NCBI GenBank assembly: GCA_964489445.1
Contig: CAZAYU010000006.1
Span: 53,518-117,517 of the forward strand
Direction of reading: 5' to 3'
From: an uncultured Planctomycetia bacterium
Lineage (GTDB): Bacteria; Omnitrophota; Gorgyraeia; Duberdicusellales; 4484-171
DNA: 64,000 bases
The notes beneath the pieces were generated by a model. That model had not been told where the DNA came from. It did not search any database and saw only the letters and a program-made list of their open reading frames with translations. A program made the translations under genes and the position numbers. This document shows positions 4,711 to 57,642 of the stretch, piece by piece. Each line of letters starts with the position of its first letter. Positions within the stretch are counted from its first letter, which is position 1.

Positions 4711-7491
4711 TCACGAAAAACAAGAACTCTGATTGTGCCATCTAAGATTCAAGCACCCCCCCTGACAAACTCTTTGGCTAAAAAAATCCTTACTTTTTTG
4801 AGAATTCTTATCATTTAAACTATTCATAAAAAGATCATGCGCCAGGCACTCATTACATGATTCAATCAAACAATTAGAAATTAGCTGTGCTGTATTTTTC
4901 TTTAAAAAAGCATTTAACTCTTTCCTATTTTTGAATTTCAATATATTCTCGTTCTTCATAAAAACTGAATAACAAAATGAAAAACTTAAATCAGGATTTA
5001 CAGTAAGCATATACGTATACCGGCCTTTATACCCTATCGGACACCTAGTGTATGCCACATAAGGAGAAATTTCCTTAAGCTTCTTCCACTCTTTATCCGA
5101 GAACATGCACACAGGAATGGGGCGGTAGTTATAAAACGGTATCCTCAACCTTACACATTCCTTCTGAATCTGCATTATTTGACGAAAGAAATGTTGACTA
5201 TAATCAAATATATTGCACCCAAGATTTTGCTTCGATGAATCCGGCAATGCCAAACTTGTCCTCACAAACGTTGGTTTGTAATATTCTACATCGAAAAACA
5301 ATTTTCTCAAGTCTTCTTTGTCCTTACCTATTATATAAGAGAATCCAAAACTTATATTTCTTGCTTTCCACTCCTTAAGATTCCGATCAAAAAATCGCTG
5401 CTGGCTAGAATTTGCAACCTGGCGGGCATTATAATTTACAATAACATTTTCATGCCAAAAACTTTTTACATTTGAAATAATCCGGCTGGGAAAAACATTA
5501 TTTGTTGCTATTGTTATAAACATTTTATGTTTATAACACAATTTAAGCATATCACTAAAATCTGGATGAAGCGTCGGTTCTCCTCCCAAAAAAACCATTC
5601 TATTCCATTTGTTTTTCTTAGCCCAAATTAATAGGCGATAGAAATCATTTAGTGTCATATCATTTGGTATTTTTTCCTTAAAATCTCGTGCATAGCAATA
5701 TTTGCAAGATAAATTACATTTATACGTTGTGCATACTTTCAATAAGGAATCTTGCATCCGAGGCAACCAGTCAGGTTTTCTTGTGTGCACATGGTAATGT
5801 AGTTGGCTCCAAGCGTCCCTTCTTGACCATCTTTTACTCGAAAAGATTAGCAATTGATAGAAAACAGTCAAATAAGATTTAAAATAAAAAAAAGAATAAC
5901 CTAGCAATCTTCCAGATAACCATAACCTCCTGACTTTATTAATAATTCTGTGAATTATTTTCTTTTGGGAATTTATTGTAATAACGGCTATTTCAATCGT
6001 TCTTTGACGAATACGTTTAAAATTCAATTTGAATGATACAATAAATAGATACAAATGATGCCATACTGAATGCAACACCATAAACTTATACTTATCAAGA
6101 TGCCTGATTGGTTTTTTACATATTGCTTTTATGCGAATAGCTTTCATTTTCTTAACGATCTTCTTTCTTAGCTTGTCATTATTCTGACCAAATAAAAATC
6201 CAGGAACAGAGTAGTTGTTATTTTCAAACTTAAAATCATTATTAAATTTATCCTTGTATATTTCAGAAAGCGTGCTACCCGGCAAAAAGTTTGCAAACAA
6301 AAACCATGCTCTATCCAATCCTAAACTTTCCGCAAAAGATAATGTTTCATTAATCTCTGCTTCCGTTTCCCCCGGAAACCCCAAAATAAAAAAGCTATTG
6401 GTATCTATACCAATTTTCCTTGCTACTTTGACTATTTCTTTTACCTGTATTAGGTTCACAGGCTTTCCAATAAAGGTCTCAAGTATCCGTTTGTTGGCGC
6501 TTTCGATACCTAAAGTTAACTCATAGCAACCACTTTCTTTCATTAATTCCAATAATTTTTCATCCAGTGTCCAAGCTGCAACTCCGTTAGGCATATTCCA
6601 ATGTATATTAAATTTCCGTTTAATCATGCCTTCAAACAACTCCACTGTTCTTTTTTTATCTTGTGTTAGATTATCATCAATAAATTGTACTTCTCTTATC
6701 GAAAACTTTTTAATTAATTCTTCAATCTCGTTTAATACATTTTCTGTTGTCCGAACCCGGTATCTTCTTCCCCAATAATTACTTGATGAACAAAATTGGC
6801 AATCCTCTAAACAACCTCGTGAGGTTATCAAGGTTGTATTGCGTTTAGTTTTAGAAATGTGCCCGGGAGGCCTGTTGATGCTATAATATTCTTCCATTGG
6901 TATTAACTGGCGAGCAGGAAAAGAAATATCATCTAAACACCGAATAAAATTATTCTTTTTATTTACAATAATTTCTTTTCCGTTCCGCCAAGCTATTCCA
7001 TCTAAATCGTAAACCGAACGGCTTAAATTGAGCCGAGATAACAGTTCTTTGAAAGAACTTTCTCCTTCACCAAGCACAATGAAATCTATATCAGTATCCC
7101 GCATGCATTCTCGAGCAAGAAAAGTAGGATGGCTGCCGCCGATAACAGTAACAATCTCTTTATTAAGAAATTTTACCTCTTTGCAAATACTTTGAGCAGC
7201 TATGAATTGGCTTGAAAATAAGCAGCTAATACCGACTACATCCGGAGTGAATATTCTAATTTCTTCTTTAATCTTTCCCATCTTTAAACCATGACGATAA
7301 CGTTTCTCTCCTGCTAAAACTCGATGTTTAAATCCTTCAACTACACAATCTAAGATTTTTACATTAAAATCATCTTTAATCGCGCTGGCAATATAAGCTA
7401 GTCCTAGGGGAGGAGTAACAACTTCGTAACTTCCTGTCGGCAATAAGAATGGTGGAAAAATCAAAAGTACATTTTTTATTTTTTTACTCAT
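4711..7491 (-). CDS. Fusion protein: cobalamin-binding (class B) radical SAM domain + family-A SPASM radical SAM domain
   Basis: N-terminal B12-binding-like domain (…VIGGSHPTF…) then radical SAM TSRGCLEDCQFC. The C-terminal ~400 aa is paralogous to ORFs 977/2241, including the hydrophobic linker, CTTYKCNLSCKYCYA, LGGEPTLHPDF and the terminal VCQGGC. Confidence 0.75.
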   Translation of the reverse strand: MSKKIKNVLLIFPPFLLPTGSYEVVTPPLGLAYIASAIKDDFNVKILDCVVEGFKHRVLAGEKRYRHGLKMGKIKEEIRIFTPDVVGISCLFSSQFIAAQSICKEVKFLNKEIVTVIGGSHPTFLARECMRDTDIDFIVLGEGESSFKELLSRLNLSRSVYDLDGIAWRNGKEIIVNKKNNFIRCLDDISFPARQLIPMEEYYSINRPPGHISKTKRNTTLITSRGCLEDCQFCSSSNYWGRRYRVRTTENVLNEIEELIKKFSIREVQFIDDNLTQDKKRTVELFEGMIKRKFNIHWNMPNGVAAWTLDEKLLELMKESGCYELTLGIESANKRILETFIGKPVNLIQVKEIVKVARKIGIDTNSFFILGFPGETEAEINETLSFAESLGLDRAWFLFANFLPGSTLSEIYKDKFNNDFKFENNNYSVPGFLFGQNNDKLRKKIVKKMKAIRIKAICKKPIRHLDKYKFMVLHSVWHHLYLFIVSFKLNFKRIRQRTIEIAVITINSQKKIIHRIINKVRRLWLSGRLLGYSFFYFKSYLTVFYQLLIFSSKRWSRRDAWSQLHYHVHTRKPDWLPRMQDSLLKVCTTYKCNLSCKYCYARDFKEKIPNDMTLNDFYRLLIWAKKNKWNRMVFLGGEPTLHPDFSDMLKLCYKHKMFITIATNNVFPSRIISNVKSFWHENVIVNYNARQVANSSQQRFFDRNLKEWKARNISFGFSYIIGKDKEDLRKLFFDVEYYKPTFVRTSLALPDSSKQNLGCNIFDYSQHFFRQIMQIQKECVRLRIPFYNYRPIPVCMFSDKEWKKLKEISPYVAYTRCPIGYKGRYTYMLTVNPDLSFSFCYSVFMKNENILKFKNRKELNAFLKKNTAQLISNCLIESCNECLAHDLFMNSLNDKNSQKSKDFFSQRVCQGGCLNLRWHNQSSCFS

Positions 7492-16388: not shown

Positions 16389-17495
16389 CTATTTCTTCAA
16401 ATCTAAATGTTTTTCAATTTCTTCTAAAAAAGCGGTTAATTTGTGTAAGTTTTGGTTAACATCCTGAGAATCGCAATTGATTTGTTGTAAAGTTTGATCA
16501 ACTATCTGTGTATTGTTAATAATCTTTCCTAATAAATCAACTACTTCTAAAAACCTTTCCTTAAGTAACCCTAAATCACTAGTCGTTATCTCTTTCGCCT
16601 CTAAAAAATTATCATTCAATGATCTTAATTCACTATTAACGGTCTCATGTTTTATAGATAACTCCTGAAATAGACGAATGATCTCAAAAGAATTACCATT
16701 AATAGTTCTTACATCCTCATGGAAAAGCCCTAAAAGCTGTTTTAATTCTTCATTCTTGTTTGCAAAAACATGCAATAAATTATTTATTTCGACAAAGGCC
16801 TCTTTAAAGGACTTTAAATCAGCTTCCACAGACTCTTGGAACGCCTTATCTTGTTTAACCGTTTGGTCTAAAAAGTTGTTCGTACTCAACGATACGTCAT
16901 TTAGAGACTTTAAACCAGCTCCCACAGACTCTTGGAATATTTTGTCCTGTTCAACTGTCTGGCTTAAGGAGTTATCTACGCTTAGGGATACGTCATTTAG
17001 AGACTTTAAACCAGCTCCCACAGACTCTTGGAATATCTTATCCTGTTCAACTGTCTGGCTTAAGGAGTTATCTACGCTTAGGGATACGTCATTTAGAGAC
17101 TTTAAATTGGCTCCCACAGACTTTTGGAATATTTTGTCCTGTTCAGCTGTCTGGCTTAAGGAGTTATTTACGCTTAGGGATACGTCATTTAGAGACTTTA
17201 AACCAGCCCCCACAGACTCTTGGAATATCTTATCCTGTTTATTCATTTGATTTAAGGAGCTAACTACTATGCTTAAACTTTTCACAATTGAAACATTGTA
17301 TATTTTTATATTAAAAATAAAATCACCGATATTAGCTAAAAATCTAAACACAACAGCAACAACCGCCCCAGTTAATAAAACAACACTATACTTCTCCCAA
17401 GAGCCGGCACACCAGATTCCTCCAAGTATAGCGCCAATAAATAATGCACTCCAAGAAAAAGCTATCAACGCCCAACCTATGAATGTACGTTGCAT
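16389..17495 (-). CDS. Membrane-anchored coiled-coil repeat protein (2 N-terminal TM helices + ~5 x 32-aa tandem repeats)
   Basis: N-terminus WALIAFSWSALFIGAILGGIW… followed by repeats (E)QDKIFQESVGAGLKSLNDVSLSVDNSLSQTV, encoded by a 96-bp DNA tandem array. A further heptad-rich alpha-helical tail follows. Confidence 0.6.
   Translation of the reverse strand: MQRTFIGWALIAFSWSALFIGAILGGIWCAGSWEKYSVVLLTGAVVAVVFRFLANIGDFIFNIKIYNVSIVKSLSIVVSSLNQMNKQDKIFQESVGAGLKSLNDVSLSVNNSLSQTAEQDKIFQKSVGANLKSLNDVSLSVDNSLSQTVEQDKIFQESVGAGLKSLNDVSLSVDNSLSQTVEQDKIFQESVGAGLKSLNDVSLSTNNFLDQTVKQDKAFQESVEADLKSFKEAFVEINNLLHVFANKNEELKQLLGLFHEDVRTINGNSFEIIRLFQELSIKHETVNSELRSLNDNFLEAKEITTSDLGLLKERFLEVVDLLGKIINNTQIVDQTLQQINCDSQDVNQNLHKLTAFLEEIEKHLDLKK
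16780..17255. repeat. Tandem 96-bp repeat array (~5 copies, near-identical) inside the coiled-coil gene
   Basis: The motif gatacgtcatttagagactttaaaccagctcccacagactcttggaatat recurs at 16891, 16987, 17083 and 17179, with a degenerate copy near 16795. Confidence 0.85.
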
Positions 17496-18838
17496 ACTAC
17501 CCCCTTATTTACTAACAATTTTTTTTGTGAATCAAGCAATAAATTAAAAATGCCTGGAATTTCTGCGTTTAAGCCATTGAGCCACTTGTCAAAATTAAGC
17601 GTGAACGCTTTTATTAATCTTTGATTTACAATAGGATGCTTCTTAATAAGAAAATCCTCCCAATTATTATGTAAATCCAACATTAATAGCAACCTTTTAG
17701 AAAATAGCGATAGGCTGGTATCCCTGCCCCCTAATATATTTTCCAGTAAAATATTCAGAGTTCCGCCAATAAATACAGAATCTACTAATCTTTTTTTTAA
17801 AAGATTACCGGTTAAAAGAGCAAATACTAAAAAATTTTGAAAAAAACCAGAACGCTTATTTAATAATGTTCGTAATGAACTACTTTTTGAATCTAAATGA
17901 TAAAAAAAAGTCAAATCTACCATACTAAAGTATAAAACAGAAAAAGGGATATTTCTTATATCTTGTATTGAATTTTTTTTCTGATAAATGAACAAAAAAT
18001 CCTGGAAAAAAAGATACATGCAAAGTAAAAAATCAATATACATTAACTTTAATCTTTTATGTAAAAAGTCATCGGTCATAAATCTATTGGCTAAACCAAT
18101 ATTCTCCTTTATCTTCACCGACAATTTTTGATAATCACGATAGTACCCTTTTCCCTGATGATACATGAAATTCCAATTCCAATACGCACTAAACAAAGAA
18201 GAAAGGCTGTCCTTTTTTGTATGGTAGACTAGGGCTTCAGGCACATAGACTAAACTGTATCCCAACCTTTTAACTTTCTTTGATATATCCACATCCTCAT
18301 AGTTAGTCGCATATTTTTCATTATAGCCACCTGAGTTTAAAATACATTTTTTCCGAAAAACTGTGTTAGATCCAAATAAAAACCGAATCGAACTTGTTTT
18401 TTTCTCTCCCCACTCCTGTTTCATATGAACCGCACGCCAAGAATCAATGATGTGCTTTGTCTTTCTTTCCAGCATTCTCCCCCCCACACCCCCTACTTTT
18501 GGTGAAATAAAACTATTCATTAAATTTTCAAGCCATTTTTCATCAACTACACAATCTGCATCTACAGCTGCTATAAACTCACCATTGGAACTTTTAACTG
18601 CTGTATTTCTTACTGCCGCTAACCCTTTGTTGGTTTTGTGTTTGATTAATTTAACTGGAAATTTTAAGGCTAATTTGCTGGTTTCATCTACGGAGCCATC
18701 GTCAATAACCAATATTTCTTCTATCGGATAAGACTGTTTTAAAACCGCCTTTAGGCAACGTTCAATATACTCTGCCGCATTAAAGCATGGTATATAAACA
18801 GTAACTTTAAACTTTGCAGTATTTCTTTTTTTACTCAT
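17477..18838 (-). CDS. Glycosyltransferase family 2 with C-terminal membrane domain
   Basis: VYIPCFNAAEYI…VIDDGSVDET…AVDADC (DxD) GT-A motifs. The C-terminal ~200 aa is hydrophobic. Confidence 0.75.
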   Translation of the reverse strand: MSKKRNTAKFKVTVYIPCFNAAEYIERCLKAVLKQSYPIEEILVIDDGSVDETSKLALKFPVKLIKHKTNKGLAAVRNTAVKSSNGEFIAAVDADCVVDEKWLENLMNSFISPKVGGVGGRMLERKTKHIIDSWRAVHMKQEWGEKKTSSIRFLFGSNTVFRKKCILNSGGYNEKYATNYEDVDISKKVKRLGYSLVYVPEALVYHTKKDSLSSLFSAYWNWNFMYHQGKGYYRDYQKLSVKIKENIGLANRFMTDDFLHKRLKLMYIDFLLCMYLFFQDFLFIYQKKNSIQDIRNIPFSVLYFSMVDLTFFYHLDSKSSSLRTLLNKRSGFFQNFLVFALLTGNLLKKRLVDSVFIGGTLNILLENILGGRDTSLSLFSKRLLLMLDLHNNWEDFLIKKHPIVNQRLIKAFTLNFDKWLNGLNAEIPGIFNLLLDSQKKLLVNKGVVCNVHS

Positions 18839-27019: not shown

Positions 27020-27793
27020 CTACCTAGACTCAACAATTTCTTGAGATAAGTTCCGTAGCAGCACTTTAACGTGCTCAAGGCGAATGTTAATGTCCTCATT
27101 TAGCTGTTTTAACCCATTATTATTAAGAACTATTTCGCTGTTAACATTATCTAGTGTAAAAGATACACTCCTTCTCTGGGCTGCTGAATCTTCGCTTGCT
27201 GAAGACAATAAGCTACTTAATGATTGAACCGAATTATCAAGTCTATCTATCTCTTGTTTTACATTTAAAGAAGAAAGAGATTCGGGTAATAGCTGTAAGG
27301 TTTCATTAATTTTTTCAAATGCTGAAGACAGTAAGCTACTTAATGATTGAACCGAATTATCAATTTTTTCAAATTTATCTTTTAAAGTACAATCAATACG
27401 CTCTTCAAAAACATCTATCTTGGCTAGCACCTGTCTCATCTCCAAAGATAAACCACTGCTTAAAGAGTTTATCGAGTTATTCATTCCGCTTAGCTCTTTT
27501 GAAATAGCCAATATTTGAGAATAAAGGAATGAAGAAATATTAAAAAATATTTGGGATATATTTCCAAGCACCCTAACAATTGTTCCCAAAAGAATGCTTA
27601 CTAGAACAACCATCAACCCACTAAAAAATAATTTTGGATTAGTAAATCTAGCAAGCATCAAGTAACTGCCTCCTAAAAAGCCAAAGACCACAATCAGCCA
27701 AGAAAGAACCATCAAAATAACAGTGGTGGGAATATTTTTTGTCTTCACAACCATAGCATAACCTCCTTCTTTATTACATTTTTTTGTTGCCAA
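27020..27793 (-). CDS. Membrane-anchored coiled-coil protein (2 N-terminal TM helices + Ser/Leu-rich repeats)
   Basis: TM helices TTVILMVLSWLIVVFGFLGG and LMVVLVSILLGTIV. Repeated DNSVQSLSSLLSSA(F/S)E units sit 41 aa apart, matching DNA repeats at 27198 and 27321. Confidence 0.55.
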   Translation of the reverse strand: MATKKCNKEGGYAMVVKTKNIPTTVILMVLSWLIVVFGFLGGSYLMLARFTNPKLFFSGLMVVLVSILLGTIVRVLGNISQIFFNISSFLYSQILAISKELSGMNNSINSLSSGLSLEMRQVLAKIDVFEERIDCTLKDKFEKIDNSVQSLSSLLSSAFEKINETLQLLPESLSSLNVKQEIDRLDNSVQSLSSLLSSASEDSAAQRRSVSFTLDNVNSEIVLNNNGLKQLNEDINIRLEHVKVLLRNLSQEIVESR

Positions 27794-40167: not shown

Positions 40168-41403
40168 TCAATTTTCAAAAAAATTATTCCTGACTACCAC
40201 ATCGTAAATATTTTGAGCCATGACTCCATACCCTTGAGCATTAGGATGTCCCCTGTCTTCTGATAAATATTCTTCTTTGTCTTTCCAAATTTCATTGAAT
40301 CTTTTTTCATTGTCAATGTAGGTAGCTCCATTATTTTCTGCAACTTCTTGCAAAATATAATTCATATCCTTGAAGGACCAAATATCCTCACATTTTGGAT
40401 AATTTTGGATTATTACGGGAATCTCTTTGTCTTTGCAAATATTGATCATCCTTGTAATATCCGAATTAACCCACCCTTGTAGCGTCTTCAAGTACAATAT
40501 TAAATCCTTTTCTCTTTTAATAAAATCTCTGACTATTTCACTTTCTTCTTCAAATTGCGATAAAAACTTAATATTCTCATTCCTTATTTCTGGTTTTTGA
40601 GAAAGAAAATTTGAAATAAAAAATCCTAACGGCTGATATTCATTAGGATTAATTTCTATTGCTTTCTTTGCGTATTCATACGCAATTTCATCATCATGAA
40701 GCATAAGAGCATATATTCTTGCAATTTGCCAATAAGATTCACAATACTCAGGCTCTAATTCCATTGCTATTTTATACCACCTTATCCCTTCCTCCCATTC
40801 TCCTTCATTTTCACAATTCCGTGCTTTATTCCAAGCATTATTAAACTCTTCTGATAAATGAATTTGTCTGTCTTTTTTTTGATCACTCTTAATCTGCTTT
40901 TGTATGTTTTTGGATAATAATTTTACCAATTTGTACACCTTAATCGACTGGATAGAATTATAAATTCTGGCACTTAATGTTTTCTCTTTTGTATATTTAA
41001 TATATCCTTGTGCATACCAAATATTTGCACCTCCAGCTAGAATAACTACTAAGTCCGGATTAAATTCTGCTATCCATCCATCAAATTTCGATAAAATTGA
41101 AAATGTATTGTACCCGCCTACCCCTCGGTTGATAACCTGACAATTTATCTTATTATTATCTGCATTTAACAATTTCTCTAATTGCCGGGGGTAACTTTTA
41201 TCAGAAGGAGCACCGCTACCATGAGTAAATGAATCCCCTACACATAGAATGATATAGCTATTAGCTTCTTTTTGATTGACTTTATCTCTAGCGGCATTTT
41301 TTAGACAAACATACCCTGTCAATCTCAAACCACCTTCAAGTGCTACCAAACAAACAACAATTCCTAGTAAAAAAACAATAAATTTACGTCTTAATAAAAA
41401 CAT
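40168..41403 (-). CDS. SGNH/GDSL hydrolase domain + TPR repeats, secreted/membrane-anchored (tandem duplicate copy A)
   Basis: N-terminal TM helix. Motifs CVGDSFTHGSGA (block I), GGAN (III) and DRGHPNAQGYG (V), with TPR-like C-terminal region. Confidence 0.7.
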   Translation of the reverse strand: MFLLRRKFIVFLLGIVVCLVALEGGLRLTGYVCLKNAARDKVNQKEANSYIILCVGDSFTHGSGAPSDKSYPRQLEKLLNADNNKINCQVINRGVGGYNTFSILSKFDGWIAEFNPDLVVILAGGANIWYAQGYIKYTKEKTLSARIYNSIQSIKVYKLVKLLSKNIQKQIKSDQKKDRQIHLSEEFNNAWNKARNCENEGEWEEGIRWYKIAMELEPEYCESYWQIARIYALMLHDDEIAYEYAKKAIEINPNEYQPLGFFISNFLSQKPEIRNENIKFLSQFEEESEIVRDFIKREKDLILYLKTLQGWVNSDITRMINICKDKEIPVIIQNYPKCEDIWSFKDMNYILQEVAENNGATYIDNEKRFNEIWKDKEEYLSEDRGHPNAQGYGVMAQNIYDVVVRNNFFEN

Positions 41404-42702
41404 TTATGCTGATAGTTCTAGGAATAAAATATATTCTATTAAAGGCCTGGACAAACTTTATTTTTCTAAATCGGAATTTAGCTTTTTTATATGTTTACAA
41501 ATATTTTGAGCCATGGCTCCATACCCTTGAGCATTAGGATGCCCCCTGTCTATCGATAAATATTCTTCTTTGTCTTTCCAAATTTCATTGAATCTTTTTT
41601 CATTGTCAATGTAGGTAGCTCCATTATTTTCTGCAACTTCTTGCAAAATATAATTCATATCCTTGAAGGACCAAATATCCTCACATTTTGGATAATTTTG
41701 GATTATTACGGGAATCTCTTTGTCTTTGCAAATATTGATCATCCTTGTAATATCCGAATTAACCCACCCTTGTAGCGTCTTCAAGTACAATATTAAATCC
41801 TTTTCTCTTTTAATAAAATCTCTGACTATTTCACTTTCTTCTTCAAATTGCGATAAAAACTTAATATTCTCATTCCTTATTTCTGGTTTTTGAGAAAGAA
41901 AATTTGAAATAAAAAATCCTAACGGCTGATATTCATTAGGATTAATTTCTATTGCTTTCTTTGCGTATTCATACGCAATTTCATCATCATGAAGCATAAG
42001 AGCATATATTCTTGCAATTTGCCAATAAGATTCACAATACTCAGGCTCTAATTCCATTGCTATTTTATACCACCTTATCCCTTCCTCCCATTCTCCTTCA
42101 TTTTCACAATTCCGTGCTTTATTCCAAGCATTATTAAACTCTTCTGATAAATGAATTTGTCTGTCTTTTTTTTGATCACTCTTAATCTGCTTTTGTATGT
42201 TTTTGGATAATAATTTTACCAATTTGTACACCTTAATCGACTGGATAGAATTATAAATTCTGGCACTTAATGTTTTCTCTTTTGTATATTTAATATATCC
42301 TTGTGCATACCAAATATTTGCACCTCCAGCTAGAATAACTACTAAGTCCGGATTAAATTCTGCTATCCATCCATCAAATTTCGATAAAATTGAAAATGTA
42401 TTGTACCCGCCTACCCCTCGGTTGATAACCTGACAATTTATCTTATTATTATCTGCATTTAACAATTTCTCTAATTGCCGGGGGTAACTTTTATCAGAAG
42501 GAGCACCGCTACCATGAGTAAATGAATCCCCTACACATAGAATGATATAGCTATTAGCTTCTTTTTGATTGACTTTATCTCTAGCGGCATTTTTTAGACA
42601 AACATACCCTGTCAATCTCAAACCACCTTCAAGTGCTACCAAACAAACAACAATTCCTAGTAAAAAAACAATAAATTTACGTCTTAATAAAAACATTTAT
42701 TT
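40206..42702. repeat. Direct tandem duplication: two ~1.2-kb units (40206..41408 and 41499..42702) with near-perfect identity, separated by a ~90-bp unique spacer
   Basis: Side-by-side reading shows only a few mismatches (e.g. catgactcc vs catggctcc). Identity ends at aaacatttat on one side and aaatattttgagcc on the other. Confidence 0.85.
41458..42696 (-). CDS. SGNH/GDSL hydrolase domain + TPR repeats (tandem duplicate copy B)
   Basis: The protein is identical to copy A except for the last ~30 residues. Confidence 0.7.
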   Translation of the reverse strand: MFLLRRKFIVFLLGIVVCLVALEGGLRLTGYVCLKNAARDKVNQKEANSYIILCVGDSFTHGSGAPSDKSYPRQLEKLLNADNNKINCQVINRGVGGYNTFSILSKFDGWIAEFNPDLVVILAGGANIWYAQGYIKYTKEKTLSARIYNSIQSIKVYKLVKLLSKNIQKQIKSDQKKDRQIHLSEEFNNAWNKARNCENEGEWEEGIRWYKIAMELEPEYCESYWQIARIYALMLHDDEIAYEYAKKAIEINPNEYQPLGFFISNFLSQKPEIRNENIKFLSQFEEESEIVRDFIKREKDLILYLKTLQGWVNSDITRMINICKDKEIPVIIQNYPKCEDIWSFKDMNYILQEVAENNGATYIDNEKRFNEIWKDKEEYLSIDRGHPNAQGYGAMAQNICKHIKKLNSDLEK

Positions 42703-44899: not shown

Positions 44900-46984
44900 C
44901 TAATCATAATGACAAAACTGCAAACAAGAATTTTTACATTGTTTAGTAATTAACCTCATTTCAGCCGCTTTTTGAGAATACCAAGCATCTTTCAAAGACA
45001 TATCATAGATATTACCACAGCTACCTTGGCAAAAAAATACTTCCGAGCTAGCTTTGCCATTCTTCCAGCAAGGTGCCGTAATAATAATACTTTTATGCCC
45101 GGCACAGCATGGTTTATCTATAGTCCTCTGTGAATAATAATCAAGTAAAAGGTCAAAACTAGGATTTGAATCGACTTTTAGATAAGAATAGCGATGCTCT
45201 TTTATTCTTTGAAAGTTATCACTTAAACATTTTAGTCCATAATTATCGGGCCATAACAAACTGTGCTTACATCCTTTTTTTGAGTATTGAGGATTAGTAT
45301 TATTAACCAGATAAGGAATAAAATTGATTGAATTTACTTTGAGAGCATCAGCTATTTGAGTTAATTTAAATAAATCATTACAATTTTTGCTGAATATTAC
45401 TGTCCCAATGCCTATAGATTTTTTTTTGTTTAATAAACGAAGATGCTTTATTGCTTCCATTGCATGGTCATAGCTACCTTTTCCCCTTATAAAGTCATTG
45501 CTTTCCTTTAATCCATCTAAGGAGAAATGAATATGGTCTATGTGCGATTTAGAAATCATTTCAACCATCTGTTTATTATAAAAACCATTTGTTGTTACTG
45601 AAATATTAAGGCCCAGGCTATTAATATAGCTGGCAATTTCAAATATTTCTGCTACTAAAAACGGCTCACCTCCACTTAACACAACAGTTTTGATATTCAT
45701 CATTCTTGCTTGTCTGGCTATATCAAATATCTTATTCTTATCTACCTTTATATTATTCTGGTTTATGTCTTTTTTTATACTGCAAATGCTACACTTTAAA
45801 TTACAAGATTCCGTAAGCGATATAATTATCATCTCTGGCGGAACAATAGGAACATTCAAAATTCGCGACATGCTGTATTTTCCATTAAGGCTTTTAGAAG
45901 CATACTGATTAAAGTTAGTTGTTTCACTACGCAACGGCCCACAACAATTACTACACGCCGGATCAATCATCTTTCCCGCTAATATTTTTTTCCGTAATGC
46001 ATTTAACGCTTTGCTATCCCATACCTTCAACAAACTATCGTCTATCTTTTCTATTTTATTCTTGATAAGCGAGCAAGGTGAAATGTATCCGTCTTCGGAA
46101 ATAACTAATGTTTTCCATAAATGGATACAATACAATTCCTTTTCATTAAAAATTGCAGACACTGTTGACGATTTTCTTTGAAAATTTTTATAAAGAGAAA
46201 TTATAAAATCAATATTGTGTTGTATCCTTGTTTCAAATCTTTTTTTTGATAAAATATCTATCAACTCTTTTTGCTGTTCATCAGAAAGAGACATGCCCCT
46301 TGCCCCTTCATGTACTTCCAGCAAAGGCATAAAATGTATCTCATCAACTCCCTGGTTAATACAATATTCCATAAATAGATCTAGATGGCCATAGTTCTCA
46401 TTAGAAATTACCGGGCAAACTCTGATTAATGTATAACTTATATGATTATTCTTTTTAGCCATTTGAATAAACTTAAAAATTTTATTTACTTTAGCAAAAC
46501 ATCCATTTACCCCACGTATCTTATCGTGAACTTTTTCTAAATGTGAATCAAGACTTATTCGTAGAATATCCCACCCAACAGCCACTAATCGTTGGGCAAT
46601 TTCGGCATTAAGAAGCAAGCCGTTAGTTATCAAAATACCCTTCATATTACAAGCCTTGATCATTTCTAAAATATCAATTAGCTGCGGATACAGAAAAGGT
46701 TCGCCTCCTCTACCTCCAATATTCCAAGCTAAAGAACCATTTCTGCTAGATTGTTCAACTAGCGAAAGCATCCTTTTTTGTGGTATTATTCCTTCAAAGC
46801 TATCAACTGTTTTTTGATCATACCCTCCACAATAAGCACAATGTGAATTACAATTGTAGGTAGGGAACCACTCAATCATCTCTGGCCCTTGTAAGTTGTA
46901 ATAGATTGATTTTGCTAACCTATCTAAAGGTGTTAAAAGTGTTTTATTTATTAGATTTTGATATTTCACCATTTCTTGTCCCAT
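44900..46984 (-). CDS. Double radical SAM protein (two tandem rSAM/SPASM modules in one polypeptide)
   Basis: Module 1 has TYNCNSHCAYCGG and GGRGGEPFLYPQ. Module 2 has ISLTESCNLKCSICSI and LSGGEPFLVAE, with C-terminal CKNSCLQFC. Confidence 0.75.
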   Translation of the reverse strand: MGQEMVKYQNLINKTLLTPLDRLAKSIYYNLQGPEMIEWFPTYNCNSHCAYCGGYDQKTVDSFEGIIPQKRMLSLVEQSSRNGSLAWNIGGRGGEPFLYPQLIDILEMIKACNMKGILITNGLLLNAEIAQRLVAVGWDILRISLDSHLEKVHDKIRGVNGCFAKVNKIFKFIQMAKKNNHISYTLIRVCPVISNENYGHLDLFMEYCINQGVDEIHFMPLLEVHEGARGMSLSDEQQKELIDILSKKRFETRIQHNIDFIISLYKNFQRKSSTVSAIFNEKELYCIHLWKTLVISEDGYISPCSLIKNKIEKIDDSLLKVWDSKALNALRKKILAGKMIDPACSNCCGPLRSETTNFNQYASKSLNGKYSMSRILNVPIVPPEMIIISLTESCNLKCSICSIKKDINQNNIKVDKNKIFDIARQARMMNIKTVVLSGGEPFLVAEIFEIASYINSLGLNISVTTNGFYNKQMVEMISKSHIDHIHFSLDGLKESNDFIRGKGSYDHAMEAIKHLRLLNKKKSIGIGTVIFSKNCNDLFKLTQIADALKVNSINFIPYLVNNTNPQYSKKGCKHSLLWPDNYGLKCLSDNFQRIKEHRYSYLKVDSNPSFDLLLDYYSQRTIDKPCCAGHKSIIITAPCWKNGKASSEVFFCQGSCGNIYDMSLKDAWYSQKAAEMRLITKQCKNSCLQFCHYD

Positions 46985-47000
46985 CTAACATCATGTCTAA

Positions 47001-49001
47001 TTAATAGTTATCTGGATTAATATGCAACCCCTGCAAACACGGTTCTTTACAATTTTTTATTCTCTCTAGTTCTTTTTGATAATCGCTTGAGTTAAAAACA
47101 TCTTTGAACCTCAATTTATATAATGGCATATTTATTTCTGTTCCACACAAATACGGCTTACCTTCAAAAGTAATATTTAATGATTCAAATCCGGTTAAGC
47201 AACGATTTGATTTTTTAAGCTTATTATCAAAATAGTCAATATATCGTTCAACAACCGAAACCGGACGAGCACTTATATCAGGGTTATTCTTTACATACTC
47301 AATAATATCCTTCAACTTATTTTTTTCCAACTCTGTTATCAAAAAATTCCCTTTAACATGGCATAGTTCATTGTTTGGAATAACTGGCTGGATGTCAACC
47401 CTTACCCCCTTATACTGTTTAAGCAACATTAAAAATGCAATATAATGCATGAAATTCTCCGGCATCAATATCGAACTTACTGTTAAAAAATTAATCCTCT
47501 GCAATTTATAATAATTATGATAAATTGCTTTAAAATTAAAAAACGACTTTTGAAAAGCGCCACTTCCACGAATAAAATCATGAGTATATTCCAGCCCATC
47601 GATTGAAAAAATTATTCCTATTTTCTTTAATTCTTCTTTTGAAAAATTATTCAAAAATTCCTCATTAAATAGAATCCCATTAGATATAATATTGACTGTA
47701 GCAATATCTGTTGCGCAAACAAATTTAATTATTTCCGGTAAATCTTTACGTAACAGCGGCTCTCCCCCACCAAATGTGATTCTTTCAATATTGCAATCAT
47801 TATTTAAATTAAGAATCAGCCTCTTCCACTCTTCCTTAGTAATTTCATCTTGGATATCAAATTTACCCTTACCAGTAGTGCACATAATGCATTTAAGATT
47901 ACAGCGATTAGTAATCGCAATATAAAACTCTGTGATATTGAACTCCTTTCTATCCATTATTACTTTCTTGCTGCTACTTTCTTCGTCTAAGCAACGTTTT
48001 AGCTCTTGATTAATTGCTTTAATTGGACTACAACAGCTATCCCAGCAAAGAGTGCTATCGTAATAGTGCTTATATTGTTCGATTAGTTTATAGTAAATAT
48101 CACCTAAGTCCTCATCGTAAACATTAAATGGTGTTTTTTGAGGATCACCGTTACACTTTAATACTTGCCCCTGACAATCAATTAAAATTTTATATAAGTA
48201 GAAAAAACATTTATTTTTTGCAATACTTGATATTTCCGAATTAATTTTTTGGATATCAGCGCAAGATTCATTGTCTAACCATTCTGCTCGGTTAAAATTA
48301 ACAGGAGTATCCATATTTTTTAATCTATATTTAAAATCTATTATCTGTTTGTCTGCAGGCAATAGCTCATTAAACTTTTGTGTCATTTTGACTAATTTGA
48401 TTAAAGTTACATTCTTTATTCTATAAAGCTCTGATTTTAAAAAATAATTTTCCACGTTATCATAGTTAATATTTGTCACTACCATATTAAGATTTAAATT
48501 AAGAGTTGGATTATTTTTAACGGTAAATTCTAAGAACCCTATTATTCTCTGTAAATAATCATCACCACCACAAGCCGGTTTTAATTTATACTGAATAGCT
48601 GGAACAAATGAATCTAAAGATATAGTCACTACATCCCAACCTATTTTTTTTATAAATTGCGCAAATTCTAAATCAAGTTTGCTACCGTTAGTCAATAAAG
48701 TACCAATGAGTTTTCTCTTTTTAATCTCTTCCATTAAAAATTTAATATCCTCGACTATTGTTGGTTCGCCAATTAAAGATGTTAACGAAATTTCCTGAGT
48801 TCCCATCTTTTTTGCAGCATTAAGAATTTTTATTAAAACATCTCTGGATAAATATTTATGCTCATTATGTTTTACACTTCCGGAGCAATACAAACAATTT
48901 AGATTACAAAAATTATTAATAACTAAATCAATGCAATAAGGTCCTTTTTCCACGCCTTTCAACCTTTTCTTAAACCAAGAATAAAACTCTTTTGAAATCA
49001 T
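47001..49001 (-). CDS. Double radical SAM protein (two tandem rSAM/SPASM modules)
   Basis: Module 1 has VINNFCNLNCLYCSGS. Module 2 has IAITNRCNLKCIMCTT and FGGGEPLLRKD, with C-terminal CKEPCLQG. Confidence 0.75.
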   Translation of the reverse strand: MISKEFYSWFKKRLKGVEKGPYCIDLVINNFCNLNCLYCSGSVKHNEHKYLSRDVLIKILNAAKKMGTQEISLTSLIGEPTIVEDIKFLMEEIKKRKLIGTLLTNGSKLDLEFAQFIKKIGWDVVTISLDSFVPAIQYKLKPACGGDDYLQRIIGFLEFTVKNNPTLNLNLNMVVTNINYDNVENYFLKSELYRIKNVTLIKLVKMTQKFNELLPADKQIIDFKYRLKNMDTPVNFNRAEWLDNESCADIQKINSEISSIAKNKCFFYLYKILIDCQGQVLKCNGDPQKTPFNVYDEDLGDIYYKLIEQYKHYYDSTLCWDSCCSPIKAINQELKRCLDEESSSKKVIMDRKEFNITEFYIAITNRCNLKCIMCTTGKGKFDIQDEITKEEWKRLILNLNNDCNIERITFGGGEPLLRKDLPEIIKFVCATDIATVNIISNGILFNEEFLNNFSKEELKKIGIIFSIDGLEYTHDFIRGSGAFQKSFFNFKAIYHNYYKLQRINFLTVSSILMPENFMHYIAFLMLLKQYKGVRVDIQPVIPNNELCHVKGNFLITELEKNKLKDIIEYVKNNPDISARPVSVVERYIDYFDNKLKKSNRCLTGFESLNITFEGKPYLCGTEINMPLYKLRFKDVFNSSDYQKELERIKNCKEPCLQGLHINPDNY

Positions 49002-49095: not shown

Positions 49096-52071
49096 TCAAT
49101 TACAAAGCACTTTAATTGCTTCCCTGATTCTTTCCTTTTGGCTATGCGCCTTTGAAGGAGAAAAAAAAGCATATCCGTCAGCTTTTGTTAAATAATTTAA
49201 AAGCAACCGTAAGTCATTGATTAAATATTGTTTTCCGCCACCAAGGCAATTGATTTTCAAATTATTGCTAGATCTTAATAATACTTCCATATTTTCGATT
49301 ATCAGAGAATAACTATTATTCATTAATTCCTGTAACGGTAACATCGGATACAATGATACATATTTTTCTAAGAAACGTAATTCTTGAAATATCAAAAATA
49401 AATTTCTTTTGCTACACAGCCGGCTGTGTATCTCTTCTGCCGAATCGGAAGACGGCCGTATAGAACAAAATTGAACACAATTATTTCGACAGTTTCTTAT
49501 TGTGTTTCTGAAATGTTCGGCATCTTTTGAAAACCATACAGTATCCCAAGAATCCTTGTCACCCTCTCCAAAATGCTGTAATTTTCTATCATTTGGCCCA
49601 TTACACACAAAGCATAATTTCTTTCCCACAAGTATTGCACGAGTAAAGCCAGCATAACATTTATCTACATATACAGCTTTTGAAAAATAAGTATATATTT
49701 TTTCACAAGGAATTTCTACATGTATTGGCATCCGTTTCTTTTTTTCTTCAATCTTTCTTAAAGCATCATCTAAATCCGGAAGTCGCTGTTCAGGTATCCA
49801 AAATTCGCTGCTTCTCATTCCTTTTAAGTCAGTATTGCACACGTAAGGTTGGACACAAATGCCACAAAGATCATACTCAAGACAAAAGTCTAGCATATCA
49901 TACATAGTATCAAGCGTTTGGTTCATTAAAATAGATAGAGTATTTACCCGCGGAAAAATCTTTTTTCTCCTTTTTTTCTCTACATTAATATAATTAATCG
50001 CTTCTATTGCTTGTTCAAAAACTCCTTCACCCCGCAATGAATTATGAATATCAGCATTTGGTGAATCTATAGAAATACCTAAGGTATCAAGCTCTACGTC
50101 TATCAATCTATCTATAATCTTTCTGCTTAAAATTGTTCCGTTAGTGTTAAGATGGACTATTATTCCAGGATAATAATCTTTTACATATTTTACAAGATTA
50201 AATATGTCTGGCCGCATTAATGCTTCTCCGCCAGTAAAATATACTTGCTTGAGATTACCTAGCTTATACACATCATCAATGCTCTTTTTAACATAAAACA
50301 TATCTAGTTCATCTTCGTTAGCATTCCAAACTCCGCACATTTTACAACGCAAATTACATTTTGTAGTAAGCAACAATTGATACATAAACGGCCCCACTAA
50401 AGGTTTATTTAGATAAAGCGAAAAATTATACAGATAATCTTCCTGAATATTTTTAAGAAAATCTAATTGTCCCTTGTCATCTTCTATTGAATAATTAAAG
50501 ATATTTACATCTTCCTCTAACATCAAACAACCTTTTGCCGAATCAATCTTGCTATCAATAATTTTGTCCTTTACTCCGTTATCGTTAGCATCTTTAGCTT
50601 TTATATAATAGGCTAAGGCTTGCTTGTGCTCATTATTCTCAATGCGCTTATCTCCTAGAAATAGATAATATTCAGATGGAGAGTAAAAACTATCTTCTTC
50701 CCGGCCAATATAATTATTGCAAAATTCTAGAATCTCTATTCTCTTTTGTAATGTATTCTCCCCATCTCTAGAGTGCCATCGCACAGAATTAAAATTATCT
50801 TCAAGCTCAATGCCAAAATCTCTTCTATTTTCATAGATATACGTTCCTTTAGCTATTACTAATAAATGAAAAAGAACCTTACCAATAAATCGTCTGTTAC
50901 GCTTAATAAATTCTGCTGTAAGGATAATATCCACATCTTCTTCTCCGGGAAGCCCTATTATCAACGTAACATCTGCTGTTATTCCTGCTGTATGAGTATT
51001 CTGTAGCACCAACTCTACCAATTCAGGCGTAAAACGTTTACCAATAGTCTTTAATGTTTTCGGGCTTAAACTTTCTAATCCGTAAGTAATGTGTGAGCAA
51101 CCTGCCATTTTCATTTTACTTAATAGATCTAAATTCATTTCTTCTCGTATACTAGCCTGCCCTCCCCAGTTAAGCTTTATTTTACTATCAACCAAACGAT
51201 CACAAAGACCATTCAATACTTTTAAATCTCCATTAATAAGAGAATCATTTAAAAATAGTGAACTAATACAAGGATGCTTATTGATTTGGTACATAATTTC
51301 ATCAAATATATTTCCTGCACTCCGTGTCCTGTATTTTTTCCAGTTTCTTGACTCACTGCAGAATATACATTTATTAATGCAGCCTCTACTAGTTGATATT
51401 GCTAACTTATGACTGTGAAACTCATCTAAATGATATTTATCAAAATTAAAATCAGAATAATCAGCAAAAGGCAATTCATCTAAATTCTCTATTAATTCTT
51501 CTTCCGGACAGCTTATGATATCATTGTTAATGTCTCGAAAAGCTATTCCATTTAAACCGCTAACCTTACCACATCTTTCTACTATAGCTACTATCTGAGG
51601 AAGAACTTTTTCTCCTTCAAGATAACAAATAGCATCTACAAACTGATTAGTATGTAATAAAGATGCCCCCATCTCAGACTTAGTACAATGCGGTCCGCCA
51701 AAAATAATAATTTTATCGCTATTCTCCTCTTTAACCCTCCGAGCTATTTCTTCAGAAAAAAGACGATTTAATCCCGTAATGGTAAACCCGATTGTTTTAT
51801 AACCAATACTAATAATTGACTTTACACATTCTTCTATAAACTCCCCGTATAAATTGATTATTTTTTTAACAAAATCATCATTATACCAATCTGTGGGCCT
51901 ATCATATAAGGAGTTTTTCCTCAGCCCAACTAAATAATTATAAAATTCAATATTAAAATCTAAGCATTTTACCTTATAGCCTTCTGCCTGGCATGCTGCC
52001 TTAAGCAAGGCTAGACTATAGGGTGGTGAATGTATCGACCAACAAGGAGCTTGAACAATGACCAGGCTCAT
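49096..52071 (-). CDS. Fusion protein: cobalamin-binding (class B) radical SAM + family-B SPASM radical SAM + ~120-aa C-terminal tail
   Basis: MSLVIVQAPCW, …FGGPHCTKSE…, STSRGCINKCIFCSE. The second module has LLTTKCNLRCKMCGV and FTGGEALMRPD, with CRNNCVQFC. Confidence 0.75.
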   Translation of the reverse strand: MSLVIVQAPCWSIHSPPYSLALLKAACQAEGYKVKCLDFNIEFYNYLVGLRKNSLYDRPTDWYNDDFVKKIINLYGEFIEECVKSIISIGYKTIGFTITGLNRLFSEEIARRVKEENSDKIIIFGGPHCTKSEMGASLLHTNQFVDAICYLEGEKVLPQIVAIVERCGKVSGLNGIAFRDINNDIISCPEEELIENLDELPFADYSDFNFDKYHLDEFHSHKLAISTSRGCINKCIFCSESRNWKKYRTRSAGNIFDEIMYQINKHPCISSLFLNDSLINGDLKVLNGLCDRLVDSKIKLNWGGQASIREEMNLDLLSKMKMAGCSHITYGLESLSPKTLKTIGKRFTPELVELVLQNTHTAGITADVTLIIGLPGEEDVDIILTAEFIKRNRRFIGKVLFHLLVIAKGTYIYENRRDFGIELEDNFNSVRWHSRDGENTLQKRIEILEFCNNYIGREEDSFYSPSEYYLFLGDKRIENNEHKQALAYYIKAKDANDNGVKDKIIDSKIDSAKGCLMLEEDVNIFNYSIEDDKGQLDFLKNIQEDYLYNFSLYLNKPLVGPFMYQLLLTTKCNLRCKMCGVWNANEDELDMFYVKKSIDDVYKLGNLKQVYFTGGEALMRPDIFNLVKYVKDYYPGIIVHLNTNGTILSRKIIDRLIDVELDTLGISIDSPNADIHNSLRGEGVFEQAIEAINYINVEKKRRKKIFPRVNTLSILMNQTLDTMYDMLDFCLEYDLCGICVQPYVCNTDLKGMRSSEFWIPEQRLPDLDDALRKIEEKKKRMPIHVEIPCEKIYTYFSKAVYVDKCYAGFTRAILVGKKLCFVCNGPNDRKLQHFGEGDKDSWDTVWFSKDAEHFRNTIRNCRNNCVQFCSIRPSSDSAEEIHSRLCSKRNLFLIFQELRFLEKYVSLYPMLPLQELMNNSYSLIIENMEVLLRSSNNLKINCLGGGKQYLINDLRLLLNYLTKADGYAFFSPSKAHSQKERIREAIKVLCN

Positions 52072-56847: not shown

Positions 56848-57642
56848 TTACAATTTTTTAAATAATTCCTTCTCAAAATACGAAAAAACTTTAAATCCAA
56901 GAATTAAACTGACAATAGCCCACAAGAATGTACCTGCAAATATAGAAATGCTAGGCAAATTTCCATTAAAAATAACATCACGATAATATTGAATATAGCA
57001 ACTCATAGGATTTATACTTATTACCCACCTAAGCTGTTCGGGAAGCATCTCCGAAGAATAGAATATCGGAGTTATCCAGAACCAAAGCATAAGCATAACC
57101 CCTAGAAAATGTGTTATGTCACGATAAACTACATTAAGAACAGAAAGCATAAGCGAAATACCGCAAATAAACAAAAAATGCAAAAATAAAACGATAAACA
57201 AAAAAGGGACCAAACTAATTATTTTAAAATTAAAAAATAAAAATACAAAATATAGTGTGCAAAACCCAGCAATAAATTCCAAAAAATTTGCCAGAACAAC
57301 AGATATCGGAAATATTTCTTTAGGTATATTGAACTGTTGCAAAAGCCCTCGCTGATTTATAATCGACCCTGCAGCATCAAACAGAGAACTAGAAAAAAAC
57401 ATCCAAGGGATAATACCAGCAAGAACGAAAAGAGGAAAATTTTTGATTTCCGCCTTAAAAATAAAAGTGAACACAAAAGTTATTACAAGCATTAATAATA
57501 AAGGATTAACTACTGCCCAAAATACCCCTAAAAAGGCATTCGAATATTTTGCCTTCACCCTAGAAAAGGCAATTTTCCATAAATTGCCACGATAAGAATA
57601 TATTTTAGTTATTCTTTCCCTTAACATAATACTAAAACGCAT
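56848..57642 (-). CDS. wzm: ABC-2 type transporter permease (Wzm-like)
   Basis: 264 aa, six hydrophobic segments. It sits immediately upstream of the Wzt-like ATPase, separated by 6 nt. Confidence 0.7.
   Translation of the reverse strand: MRFSIMLRERITKIYSYRGNLWKIAFSRVKAKYSNAFLGVFWAVVNPLLLMLVITFVFTFIFKAEIKNFPLFVLAGIIPWMFFSSSLFDAAGSIINQRGLLQQFNIPKEIFPISVVLANFLEFIAGFCTLYFVFLFFNFKIISLVPFLFIVLFLHFLFICGISLMLSVLNVVYRDITHFLGVMLMLWFWITPIFYSSEMLPEQLRWVISINPMSCYIQYYRDVIFNGNLPSISIFAGTFLWAIVSLILGFKVFSYFEKELFKKL

Follow-up and report, generated by a model that had tools for sequence, protein, structure and literature searches.

The window analyzed here is a stretch of 64,000 nucleotides from contig CAZAYU010000006.1 of an uncultured bacterium placed in the Omnitrophota. 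Its GC content is ~33%, every gene lies on the minus strand, and the 64 kb together constitute one very large glycan-type locus. Our subject is gene X, whose 368-amino-acid (aa) product combines an anchor of two transmembrane (TM) helices with a helical stalk, part of which is a tandem repeat array, and a conserved C-terminal helix. An identical protein is recorded at NCBI/JGI (P0001). Immediately upstream lies the gene for a GT2-family glycosyltransferase, termed GT2-long below, preceded in turn by two radical S-adenosylmethionine (SAM) genes. All coordinates are collected in Table 1.

The hydrophobic segments of X span residues 9-27 and 38-56 (Kyte-Doolittle values of 2.0 and 2.3). They are followed by a short motif that probably forms a membrane-proximal cytoplasmic helix, and then by the array, which Tandem Repeats Finder delimits at 16810-17239 (period 96, 4.5 copies, 88% matches, score 632). 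A sequence-only reading of the window, made before any database search, had described about five near-identical 32-aa repeats. The 96-bp array was recovered, but near-identity is limited to units 1-3 (90-96% DNA identity), while units 4 (~80%) and 5 (~60%) are degenerate. The longest exact DNA repeat within the array is 66 bp, at an offset of 96. The non-repetitive stretch that follows (residues 246-335) is also present in the closest relatives, P0004, P0006, P0009, and P0011.

Several observations indicate that X is helical downstream of its anchor. Proline is absent from the remaining 283 residues. In the repeats the hydrophobic periodicity has its peak at 3.56 residues (32 residues per 9 turns) and in the tail at 3.52; the tail signal (z = 10) was reached by 0 of 2,000 shuffles, and that of the repeats was exceeded in 40 of 2,000 unit-preserving shuffles. 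A period-2 peak in the repeats was not significant (154 of 2,000 shuffles). Without an alignment, AlphaFold2 modeled X as all helix at low confidence (predicted local distance difference test, pLDDT, of 55). With a 59-sequence family alignment, the model was again all-helical, at a mean pLDDT of 78, with helices at 5-28, 33-144, and 155-367 and a low-confidence break at 145-154. The sequence-only description of two TM helices followed by a helical, heptad-like tail (here 123 aa) is thus borne out, and the β-solenoid that had been named as a competing fold is contradicted by both the models and the periodicity. Comparison with the PDB by sequence profile and Foldseek gave weak, generic coiled-coil and chemoreceptor matches only. 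Among Pfam models, MYRF_ICA came near threshold (23.5 versus 24.1 bits) with no single stretch passing and was judged spurious, as were matches to Baculo_PEP_C and DUF1664, which reflect generic helical composition. PHROGs and PADLOC yielded nothing meaningful for X, giving no link to phage or defense.

Sequence comparison places X in a previously undescribed family, found mostly in Omnitrophota metagenome-assembled genomes (MAGs) and comprising at least 86 members. Word-indexed homologue searches with full-length X or a 29-sequence alignment returned only the same strain, with repeats dominating the candidates; a repeat-free alignment of short members, used as the query, recovered the family. 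An exhaustive HMMER search of 1.84 billion representatives retrieved 84 hits, of which ~75 are small proteins (110-320 aa) that match X at the N-terminal anchor and over the last 35-45 residues. Proteins P0003, P0010, P0031, P0037, P0058, P0064, P0072, and P0077 were rejected as long, unrelated repeat proteins that match the repeat region only. No model in Pfam, NCBIfam, PHROGs, or PADLOC covers the family, and database entries name its members "hypothetical protein" or give generic automatic names. The named records derive mostly from Candidatus Omnitrophota MAGs, with a few labeled Patescibacteria or Planctomycetia.

Family members begin with M-[KQ]-R-T-P-T-G-W and continue into a two-TM hairpin, the first helix of which bears an invariant Ser (Ser14 in X) and a near-invariant Trp (Trp15). 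X itself fits the pattern M-[KQ]-R-T-x-x-G-W (MQRTFIGW...FSWS). After the second TM helix come an invariant Arg and then x-L-A-N-I-G-x-F-L-F-N, which is matched in X by R51-FLANIGDFIFNI, with Arg51, Asn55, and Phe61 invariant. The proteins end in a near-invariant 31-aa motif, QINCDSKDINQNIxxIxxFFEQIERHLDLKK-COOH; the corresponding end of X, QINCDSQDVNQNLHKLTAFLEEIEKHLDLKK, shares up to 76% identity with its relatives. In 82 members, the C-terminal 31 residues are 75-100% conserved per position, with Cys in 78, Asp in 78, Phe in 82, Ile in 81, and each of two Leu residues in 82. Overall, S14, R51, F356, I360, and K367 are invariant in the alignments, and C341, D342, D345, L364, and L366 are near-invariant. 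Conservation of the C-terminal motif extends to both its hydrophobic heptad positions and a polar face, N-C-D-S-K-D-x-N-Q-N.

The spacer between these conserved ends is helical but hypervariable, conserved in neither sequence nor length, and ranges from nearly absent to >350 aa. The shortest of the 86 members has 46 aa and the longest 368, the median lying near 160; many are 112-130 aa long, nearly without a spacer. Further long members with repeats of their own are found at loci L023 (at least 385 aa) and L085 (465 aa). Internal tandem repeats occur in 39 of the 86 members, with unrelated units and periods of 6, 7, 11, 14, 18, 22, and 25-40 residues. Since the units are unrelated, spacer expansion by tandem duplication arose many times independently, and the 32-aa array of X is one recent expansion that places X among the longest members. 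One relative, P0023, contains a single stretch resembling an X unit (SIGEGTSAVNKNLLVIENSLS versus SVGAGLKSLNDVSLSVDNSLS, a likeness judged by eye). The longest member seen, L085:738-2135, has spacer repeats of ~36-52 aa rich in S, N, L, and K; its C-terminal motif is without the Cys and one Asp (INSDSNNTNQN) and ends in LDLRRR. At the GTDB genome loci L013, L020, and L023, runs of N fall exactly within the repeat spacers, so that true repeat numbers are unreadable, although at least five 48-aa units can be counted at L023.

The neighborhood upstream of X is conserved as well. Among 10 annotated and 10 genome loci, the conserved order is radical SAM, radical SAM/SPASM (~400 aa), GT2, and X. Of 19 non-redundant loci, 17 contain a GT2 ortholog, 16 the SPASM gene, and 15 the 382-aa radical SAM. 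The two loci lacking a GT2 ortholog have <300 bp of upstream sequence; in all 17 family loci with upstream sequence, the ortholog lies directly before X. These GT2 orthologs are 423-454 aa long and share 39-51% identity with GT2-long over the full length. The start of X falls between -41 and +26 nt from the GT2 end, with a typical overlap of 4 nt and an overlap of 19 nt in the window. In other loci, X often precedes a B12-radical-SAM gene and a pair of short GT2 genes. The window's own genes downstream of X show no conservation in the 19 related loci.

GT2-long comprises a GT-A domain (residues 13-222) and a conserved C-terminal extension of ~230 aa with motifs of its own. Neither Pfam nor NCBIfam nor any PDB sequence matched the extension, and the rest of the window has no paralogue of it; PDB profiles matched the GT-A half only. 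Among curated models, GT2-long scores best with MftF, the glycosyltransferase of the RiPP-like mycofactocin system, although its 136 bits fall short of the cut-off of 280; the second best for the GT2 domain is PgaC_IcaA (99.6 bits, well under cut-off). A specific kinship with S-glycosyltransferases was considered and dropped: SunS and ThuS appear far down the PDB list, through the catalytic domain only, and permit no such claim. The 408-aa radical SAM/SPASM protein scores against models for sactipeptide, ranthipeptide, and mycofactocin maturases, all under cut-off. A literature search on this module in Omnitrophota returned nothing relevant; the X family, the GT2 extension, and the four-gene core are undescribed in Pfam, NCBIfam, and the searched literature.

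We also ran the comparison in reverse, scanning metagenome contigs with a GT2-long profile. Where the GT2 carried the full-length-type extension and at least 300 nt of downstream sequence were available, the X N-domain followed directly in 44 of 44 loci; the C-terminal motif was present as well in all 22 GT2-long loci with at least 1,300 nt downstream. By contrast, in 11 related GT2s the similarity ends near residue 285, and X followed none of them. X and the distal GT2 extension therefore strictly co-occur.

Our preferred interpretation, which we advance tentatively from these sequence relationships, is that X may be a membrane tether or adaptor of GT2-long that faces the cytoplasm and docks this GT2 at its invariant tip. 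X would be the membrane-anchoring partner subunit in the conserved module of radical SAM, radical SAM/SPASM, GT2-long, and X, which lies within very large glycan loci rich in radical-SAM genes, mostly in Omnitrophota MAGs, and the C-terminal extension of GT2-long would dock onto the invariant amphipathic tip helix, holding the transferase at the membrane. The radical-SAM partners could possibly be docked on the tip as well. The spacer, whose length changes fast, largely through independent in-frame tandem duplications, would serve as a coiled-coil-like stalk that sets the distance of the docked enzyme from the membrane.

Table 1. Features of gene X, its conserved neighbors, and other genes of the window discussed in the text
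Feature	Position	Strand	Description and basis
Gene X	16389..17495	minus	368-aa open reading frame (ORF), ATG start; 2-TM anchor, helical stalk, conserved C-terminal helix (ORF list, sequence)
Shine-Dalgarno AAGGGGG	17500..17506	minus	4 nt before X ATG, within 3' end of GT2 gene (sequence)
X TM helix 1 (~residues 6-28)	17412..17480	minus	hydropathy, AlphaFold2 helix 5-28, alignments
X TM helix 2 (~residues 36-50)	17346..17390	minus	hydropathy, AlphaFold2
X post-TM2 motif R-F-L-A-N-I-G-D-F-I-F-N-I	17307..17345	minus	alignments, K/R distribution
X tandem array, five 32-aa (96-bp) units, residues 86-245	16761..17240	minus	Tandem Repeats Finder, unit-by-unit comparison
66-bp exact repeat of X, first copy	17041..17106	minus	unit-by-unit and allele comparison
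66-bp exact repeat of X, second copy	16945..17010	minus	unit-by-unit and allele comparison
X non-repetitive helical stalk, residues 246-335	16491..16760	minus	periodicity, AlphaFold2 pLDDT 70-89
X C-terminal helix, residues 336-368, LQQINCDSQDVNQNLHKLTAFLEEIEKHLDLKK-COOH	16392..16490	minus	family-defining; position-wise conservation, 82 members
GT2-long, 453 aa	17477..18838	minus	Pfam, NCBIfam, ortholog alignment, synteny, reverse test
Radical SAM/SPASM, 408 aa	18835..20061	minus	Pfam; orthologs of 38-51% identity directly upstream of GT2-long in 16/19 loci
Radical SAM, 382 aa	20054..21202	minus	most conserved module member, 54-67% identity
Two more radical SAM(/SPASM) genes, 364 and 347 aa	21203..23330	minus	kept upstream in about half of loci
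Divergent X paralogue, 244-257 aa	27020..27793	minus	same 2-TM anchor and post-TM2 motif RVLGNISQIFFNI (alignments; P0086)
Wzt, 909 aa	54112-56841	minus	~680-aa C-terminal extension after ATP-binding cassette (ABC) domain
Wzm	56848-57642	minus	

The predicted topology is compatible with such a role. Across 68 members, K and R residues together average 2.35 in the N-terminal tail of ~10 residues, 1.0 in the ~11-residue loop, and 1.76 over the 15 residues that follow the second TM helix. By the positive-inside rule, this distribution favors an N-in/C-in arrangement with the stalk in the cytoplasm, and we infer that the N-terminus and the helical domain of X face that compartment. The nucleotide-sugar GT2 and the Fe-S enzymes of the module must work in the cytoplasm. 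GT2-long has no N-terminal TM helix and a single weak hydrophobic segment (Kyte-Doolittle 1.65) that includes conserved Asp, His, and Lys residues. Without a convincing TM helix in GT2-long, X supplies the only clear membrane anchor of the pair.

The opposite placement, in which X would be a periplasmic, Wzz-like polysaccharide co-polymerase or a surface-exposed variable coiled coil, strikes us as highly improbable. A coiled-coil membrane protein with a hypervariable region in a glycan locus does recall such proteins, but both TM helices of X are N-terminal and ~6-10 residues apart, no C-terminal TM helix is present, and X has no Pfam match to Wzz (PF02706). The K/R distribution supports N-in/C-in, the single conserved Cys and the cytoplasmic partners (nucleotide-sugar GT2 and Fe-S enzymes) likewise indicate the cytoplasm, and an extended helix of ~300 residues would be wider than the periplasm.

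Some points weigh against X as a tether. Strict co-occurrence of X and GT2 would suit an enzyme-substrate relationship as well as docking. The cytoplasmic orientation rests solely on the positive-inside rule and the expected workplace of the partner enzymes. The AlphaFold2 monomer of X has a predicted TM-score of only 0.28, and neither the choice between an extended and a hairpin stalk nor the oligomeric state can be read from it. Finally, the window encodes a divergent paralogue of X (27020-27793) that has the anchor without a GT2 partner or a proper C-terminal motif, and the anchor can therefore serve other contexts. The helical region of this paralogue contains an internal repeat, IDNSVQSLSSLLSSA[FS]E, and its C-terminal motif is degenerate. 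The gene upstream encodes a 726-aa B12-radical-SAM protein, not a GT2, and a search beside the paralogue for a second copy of the GT2 extension found none. In tblastn, the paralogue gave N-terminal hits to the X genes of loci L010, L011, L016, and L021.

The enzyme-substrate relationship, the main alternative to a tether, can be stated more precisely: the C-terminal peptide of X would be modified by the adjacent radical SAM/SPASM enzymes, for instance by a Cys-to-Asp thioether at CDSKD, or the GT2 could add a sugar to it, as happens in S-glycosylation or in the mycofactocin system. Most characterized SPASM enzymes mature peptides or proteins, and both the sub-cut-off maturase scores of the SPASM protein and the MftF match of GT2-long (albeit at 136 of 280 bits) lean in this direction. 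The sequence C-D-S-[KRQ]-D is conserved in 77-78 of 82 members, which is in itself no evidence of modification, and its near-invariant C-X3-D corresponds to the motif that PapB, a SPASM enzyme, cross-links (PMC9413430). Moreover, the family protein always ends exactly at LDLKK, and some members carry two or three copies of the C-terminal motif, as do multi-core precursors. The remaining evidence makes this relationship unlikely. The conserved core of the 10 annotated loci contains no ribosomally made and post-translationally modified peptide (RiPP) recognition element (RRE)/PqqD, peptidase, or dedicated exporter, and an N-terminal recognition domain would not fit ahead of the module's radical-SAM cores, which begin at residues 9 and 35. 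The C-terminal motif keeps its full heptad hydrophobic pattern over 31 residues and looks structural, and the Cys is absent in 4 of 82 members and in L085 with the module retained (e.g., L014 and L085). We know of no precedent for a 2-TM anchor on a RiPP precursor.

The only other close homologue of X, P0002 (336 aa), equals X minus exactly one unit. At the DNA level, the short allele differs by the precise loss of 96 bp located between the two copies of the 66-bp exact repeat, and the gene is free of substitutions; contigs carrying the 336- and 368-aa alleles are otherwise identical over 21-kb flanks. The recent expansion or contraction anticipated by the sequence-only reading is thereby made plausible. 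A second one-unit difference separates L025 (ENA, k141), which is short of one 22-aa unit, from L061 and L062 (JGI); here the flanks are 99.9-100% identical and the longest exact repeat is 91 bp. The short X allele was found in five ENA MEGAHIT k141 contigs, and the long allele in two JGI contigs and the window. In both cases the shorter allele comes from ENA MEGAHIT k141 assemblies and the longer from JGI or NCBI assemblies. Because the shorter alleles share one assembly type, an assembler effect is possible for the one-unit differences. Independent of this caveat is the pair L027 and L051, whose GT2 3' halves are 95% identical in DNA and whose X proteins differ in length (143 versus 114 aa) by a 29-aa spacer indel, with both ends conserved. 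Spacer length in the X family thus evolves rapidly, and this pair shows that the effect is real.

A deflationary account would hold that the array of X is a functionally neutral, slippage-prone linker and that the difference between four and five copies is an assembly artifact. The spacer is unconstrained in sequence and length across the family, from nearly absent to >350 aa, and both same-strain cases pair a short MEGAHIT k141 allele with a longer JGI/NCBI one on nearly identical flanks, so that one population, or even one set of reads, may underlie both data sets. We nevertheless consider this account rather unlikely. With exact repeats of only 66 and 91 bp, both k = 141 and typical reads reach beyond them, and no collapse would be expected; several independent contigs support each allele. 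Every change is in frame and preserves the helical periodicity, and the 29-aa indel between 95%-identical neighbors cannot be an artifact. For the repeat array itself, a neutral linker, with or without an assembly artifact, is in any case compatible with the tether model.

At the scale of the window, the sequence-only reading had located X within a Wzm/Wzt glycan locus and, by analogy with WbdD, suggested a plausible chain-length ruler or scaffold. Wzm and Wzt are indeed encoded in the window, on the same strand as X, but 37 kb away and with several intergenic gaps between; the conserved partners of X are instead the GT2 and two radical-SAM genes, and a Wzm homologue occurs within 10 kb of X in only one of the 19 related loci. 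The analogy to WbdD was not supported: X has no homology to WbdD or any known ruler and no catalytic head. The C-terminal extension of Wzt contains at least two homologous modules of ~110 aa (28% identity, pairwise E = 4e-15). This extension, unmatched by Pfam Wzt_C and by PDB sequences, might be a multi-module carbohydrate-binding region.

In the proposal that X is a chain-length ruler, a terminating GT2 on the tip would reach only lipid-linked chains as long as the stalk, repeat number would set the modal length, and none but capped chains would be exported by Wzm/Wzt. The 909-aa Wzt with internal repeat modules in its ~680-aa extension and the highly evolvable spacer of X accord with this proposal, and a GT2 docked at the tip would reproduce the geometry of known rulers in two polypeptides. 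We regard it as unlikely nonetheless, given that X lacks homology to WbdD or WbbB and any catalytic domain, that Wzm/Wzt are remote from X here and rarely near it elsewhere, and that the Wzt extension was not identified as a carbohydrate-binding module. Many family members, moreover, are almost stalkless, and a long stalk is therefore not needed for the core function. The ruler idea would survive only in modified form, with the GT2 docked in trans at the stalk tip. The fullest such version, to which we also assign a low probability, is a lineage-specific (mostly Omnitrophota) two-polypeptide "ruler in trans", in which X would hold a dedicated glycosyltransferase, and perhaps its radical-SAM partners, on its tip at a distance from the membrane retuned over short evolutionary times by in-frame repeat slippage. 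The sequence-only reading gave a correct account of the object, and its guess at a class of function was plausible; the sequence alone could show neither the conserved partner nor the family context.

The remainder of the window is rich in carbohydrate-active and radical-SAM genes. Its transferases include GT2, GT4, and GT-C/PMT_2 types, and its sugar-modifying genes encode an aminotransferase, an epimerase, a carbamoyltransferase, and YdjC, asparagine-synthase-like, GDSL, and methyltransferase proteins. Between 977 and 53242 (minus strand), 17 ORFs contain 21 radical-SAM domains, many combined with B12-binding or SPASM domains; two such domains each are found in the ORFs at 4711-7491, 44900-46984, 47001-49001, and 49096-52071. 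This is an extreme density of radical-SAM domains, all on one strand of one glycan-type locus. The presence of a Porin_O_P protein suggests that the host is a diderm organism. Two tandem GDSL-lipase/TPR genes (40168-41403 and 41458-42696, minus strand) encode products of 411 and 412 aa with 99% identity (397/399), the mark of a very recent duplication or possibly of an assembly duplication.

Related clusters add further genes. At three related loci, L024-L026, an opposite-strand trio encoding a FIST-domain protein, a histidine kinase, and a GGDEF response regulator lies ~3.5-9 kb downstream of X and may be a cyclic di-GMP regulatory unit linked to the cluster. The L010/L011 and L027 versions of the cluster also include sulfatase, PAPS-reductase-like, TauE, and peptidase U32 genes, which suggests that the glycan or product is sulfated in these lineages.

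Omnitrophota are uncultivated, very small bacteria in whose genomes loci crowded with radical-SAM and glycosyltransferase genes take up tens of kilobases. A strictly conserved four-gene core, with a new family of unusually clear anatomy and an obligate partnership with one GT2 subtype, provides a concrete entry point into such loci. Stalk lengths in the X family, which span nearly absent to >350 residues, form a natural series as well. If the stalk does set the working distance of an enzyme, this would be the first ruler-type device of separate, modular parts tuned by repeat slippage; if "ruler in trans" were true, the chain length or capping of a surface glycan would become a rapidly evolvable and possibly population-variable trait. 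Even otherwise, the X family is a useful marker for this biosynthetic module.

Comparison with known systems helps to define what is distinctive about X. Methyl-accepting chemotaxis proteins share with X a long cytoplasmic helical domain after two TM helices; JGI automatically annotates some family members as such, and the top Foldseek and PDB-profile hits of X are chemoreceptors, at non-significant E values (2.6 and 0.003). Unlike these receptors, X has no MCPsignal Pfam match, a loop of only ~6-14 aa between its TM helices with no periplasmic sensor, and a different genomic context.

PgaD and IcaD are small 2-TM proteins encoded directly after the GT2 synthases PgaC and IcaA, and thus resemble X in having two TM helices and a gene immediately downstream of a ~440-aa GT2. 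PgaC and IcaA, however, belong to the polytopic, processive synthases and pack their TM helices against the partner, whereas GT2-long begins its GT-A domain at residue 13, has no N-terminal TM helix, and contains only one weak hydrophobic segment. PgaD and IcaD also differ from X in lacking a long cytoplasmic stalk and a conserved C-terminal helix, and homology was not detected.

In mycofactocin- and ranthipeptide-type systems (MftC/MftF and PapB/PapA), as in the X module, a SPASM gene adjoins an MftF-like GT2, and X carries a conserved C-terminal C-X3-D peptide like the substrate of PapB. The scores against these systems are far below cut-off, and the module has no RRE or chaperone, peptidase, or short precursor. 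X itself is unlike RiPP precursors of the MftC and PapB systems in being a 2-TM membrane protein with a heptad-patterned motif.

Chain-length control in ABC-transporter-dependent systems is marked by a coiled-coil protein with a distal terminating enzyme and by a Wzt with an extra C-terminal module, and in the known rulers coiled coil and terminating enzyme form a single polypeptide (PMC11231755). WbdD (Escherichia coli O9a and Klebsiella pneumoniae O3 and O5) and WbbB (K. pneumoniae O12) share with X a membrane-associated end and a distal functional element; their extended coiled coil, of functionally relevant length, may have its counterpart in the all-helical stalk of X. Their loci, like the window, encode Wzm and a Wzt extended by an extra C-terminal module (PMC11231755). 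X matches them in neither sequence nor fold. WbdD and WbbB bear a kinase, methyltransferase, or glycosyltransferase on the same chain and attach to the membrane by an amphipathic helix at the C-terminus. In X, the 2-TM hairpin is N-terminal and the far end consists of no more than the conserved 31-aa tip, to which an enzyme would dock in trans. No enzymatic domain was found in X with Pfam or NCBIfam, and the whole protein is accounted for by TM segments and helix. The conserved genetic link of X is to GT2 and radical-SAM enzymes and not to Wzm/Wzt. In its best-supported role, X resembles known tethers and rulers of glycan assembly but is built differently: its 2-TM anchor is N-terminal, it lacks an enzyme domain, and its invariant tip would receive a partner in trans.

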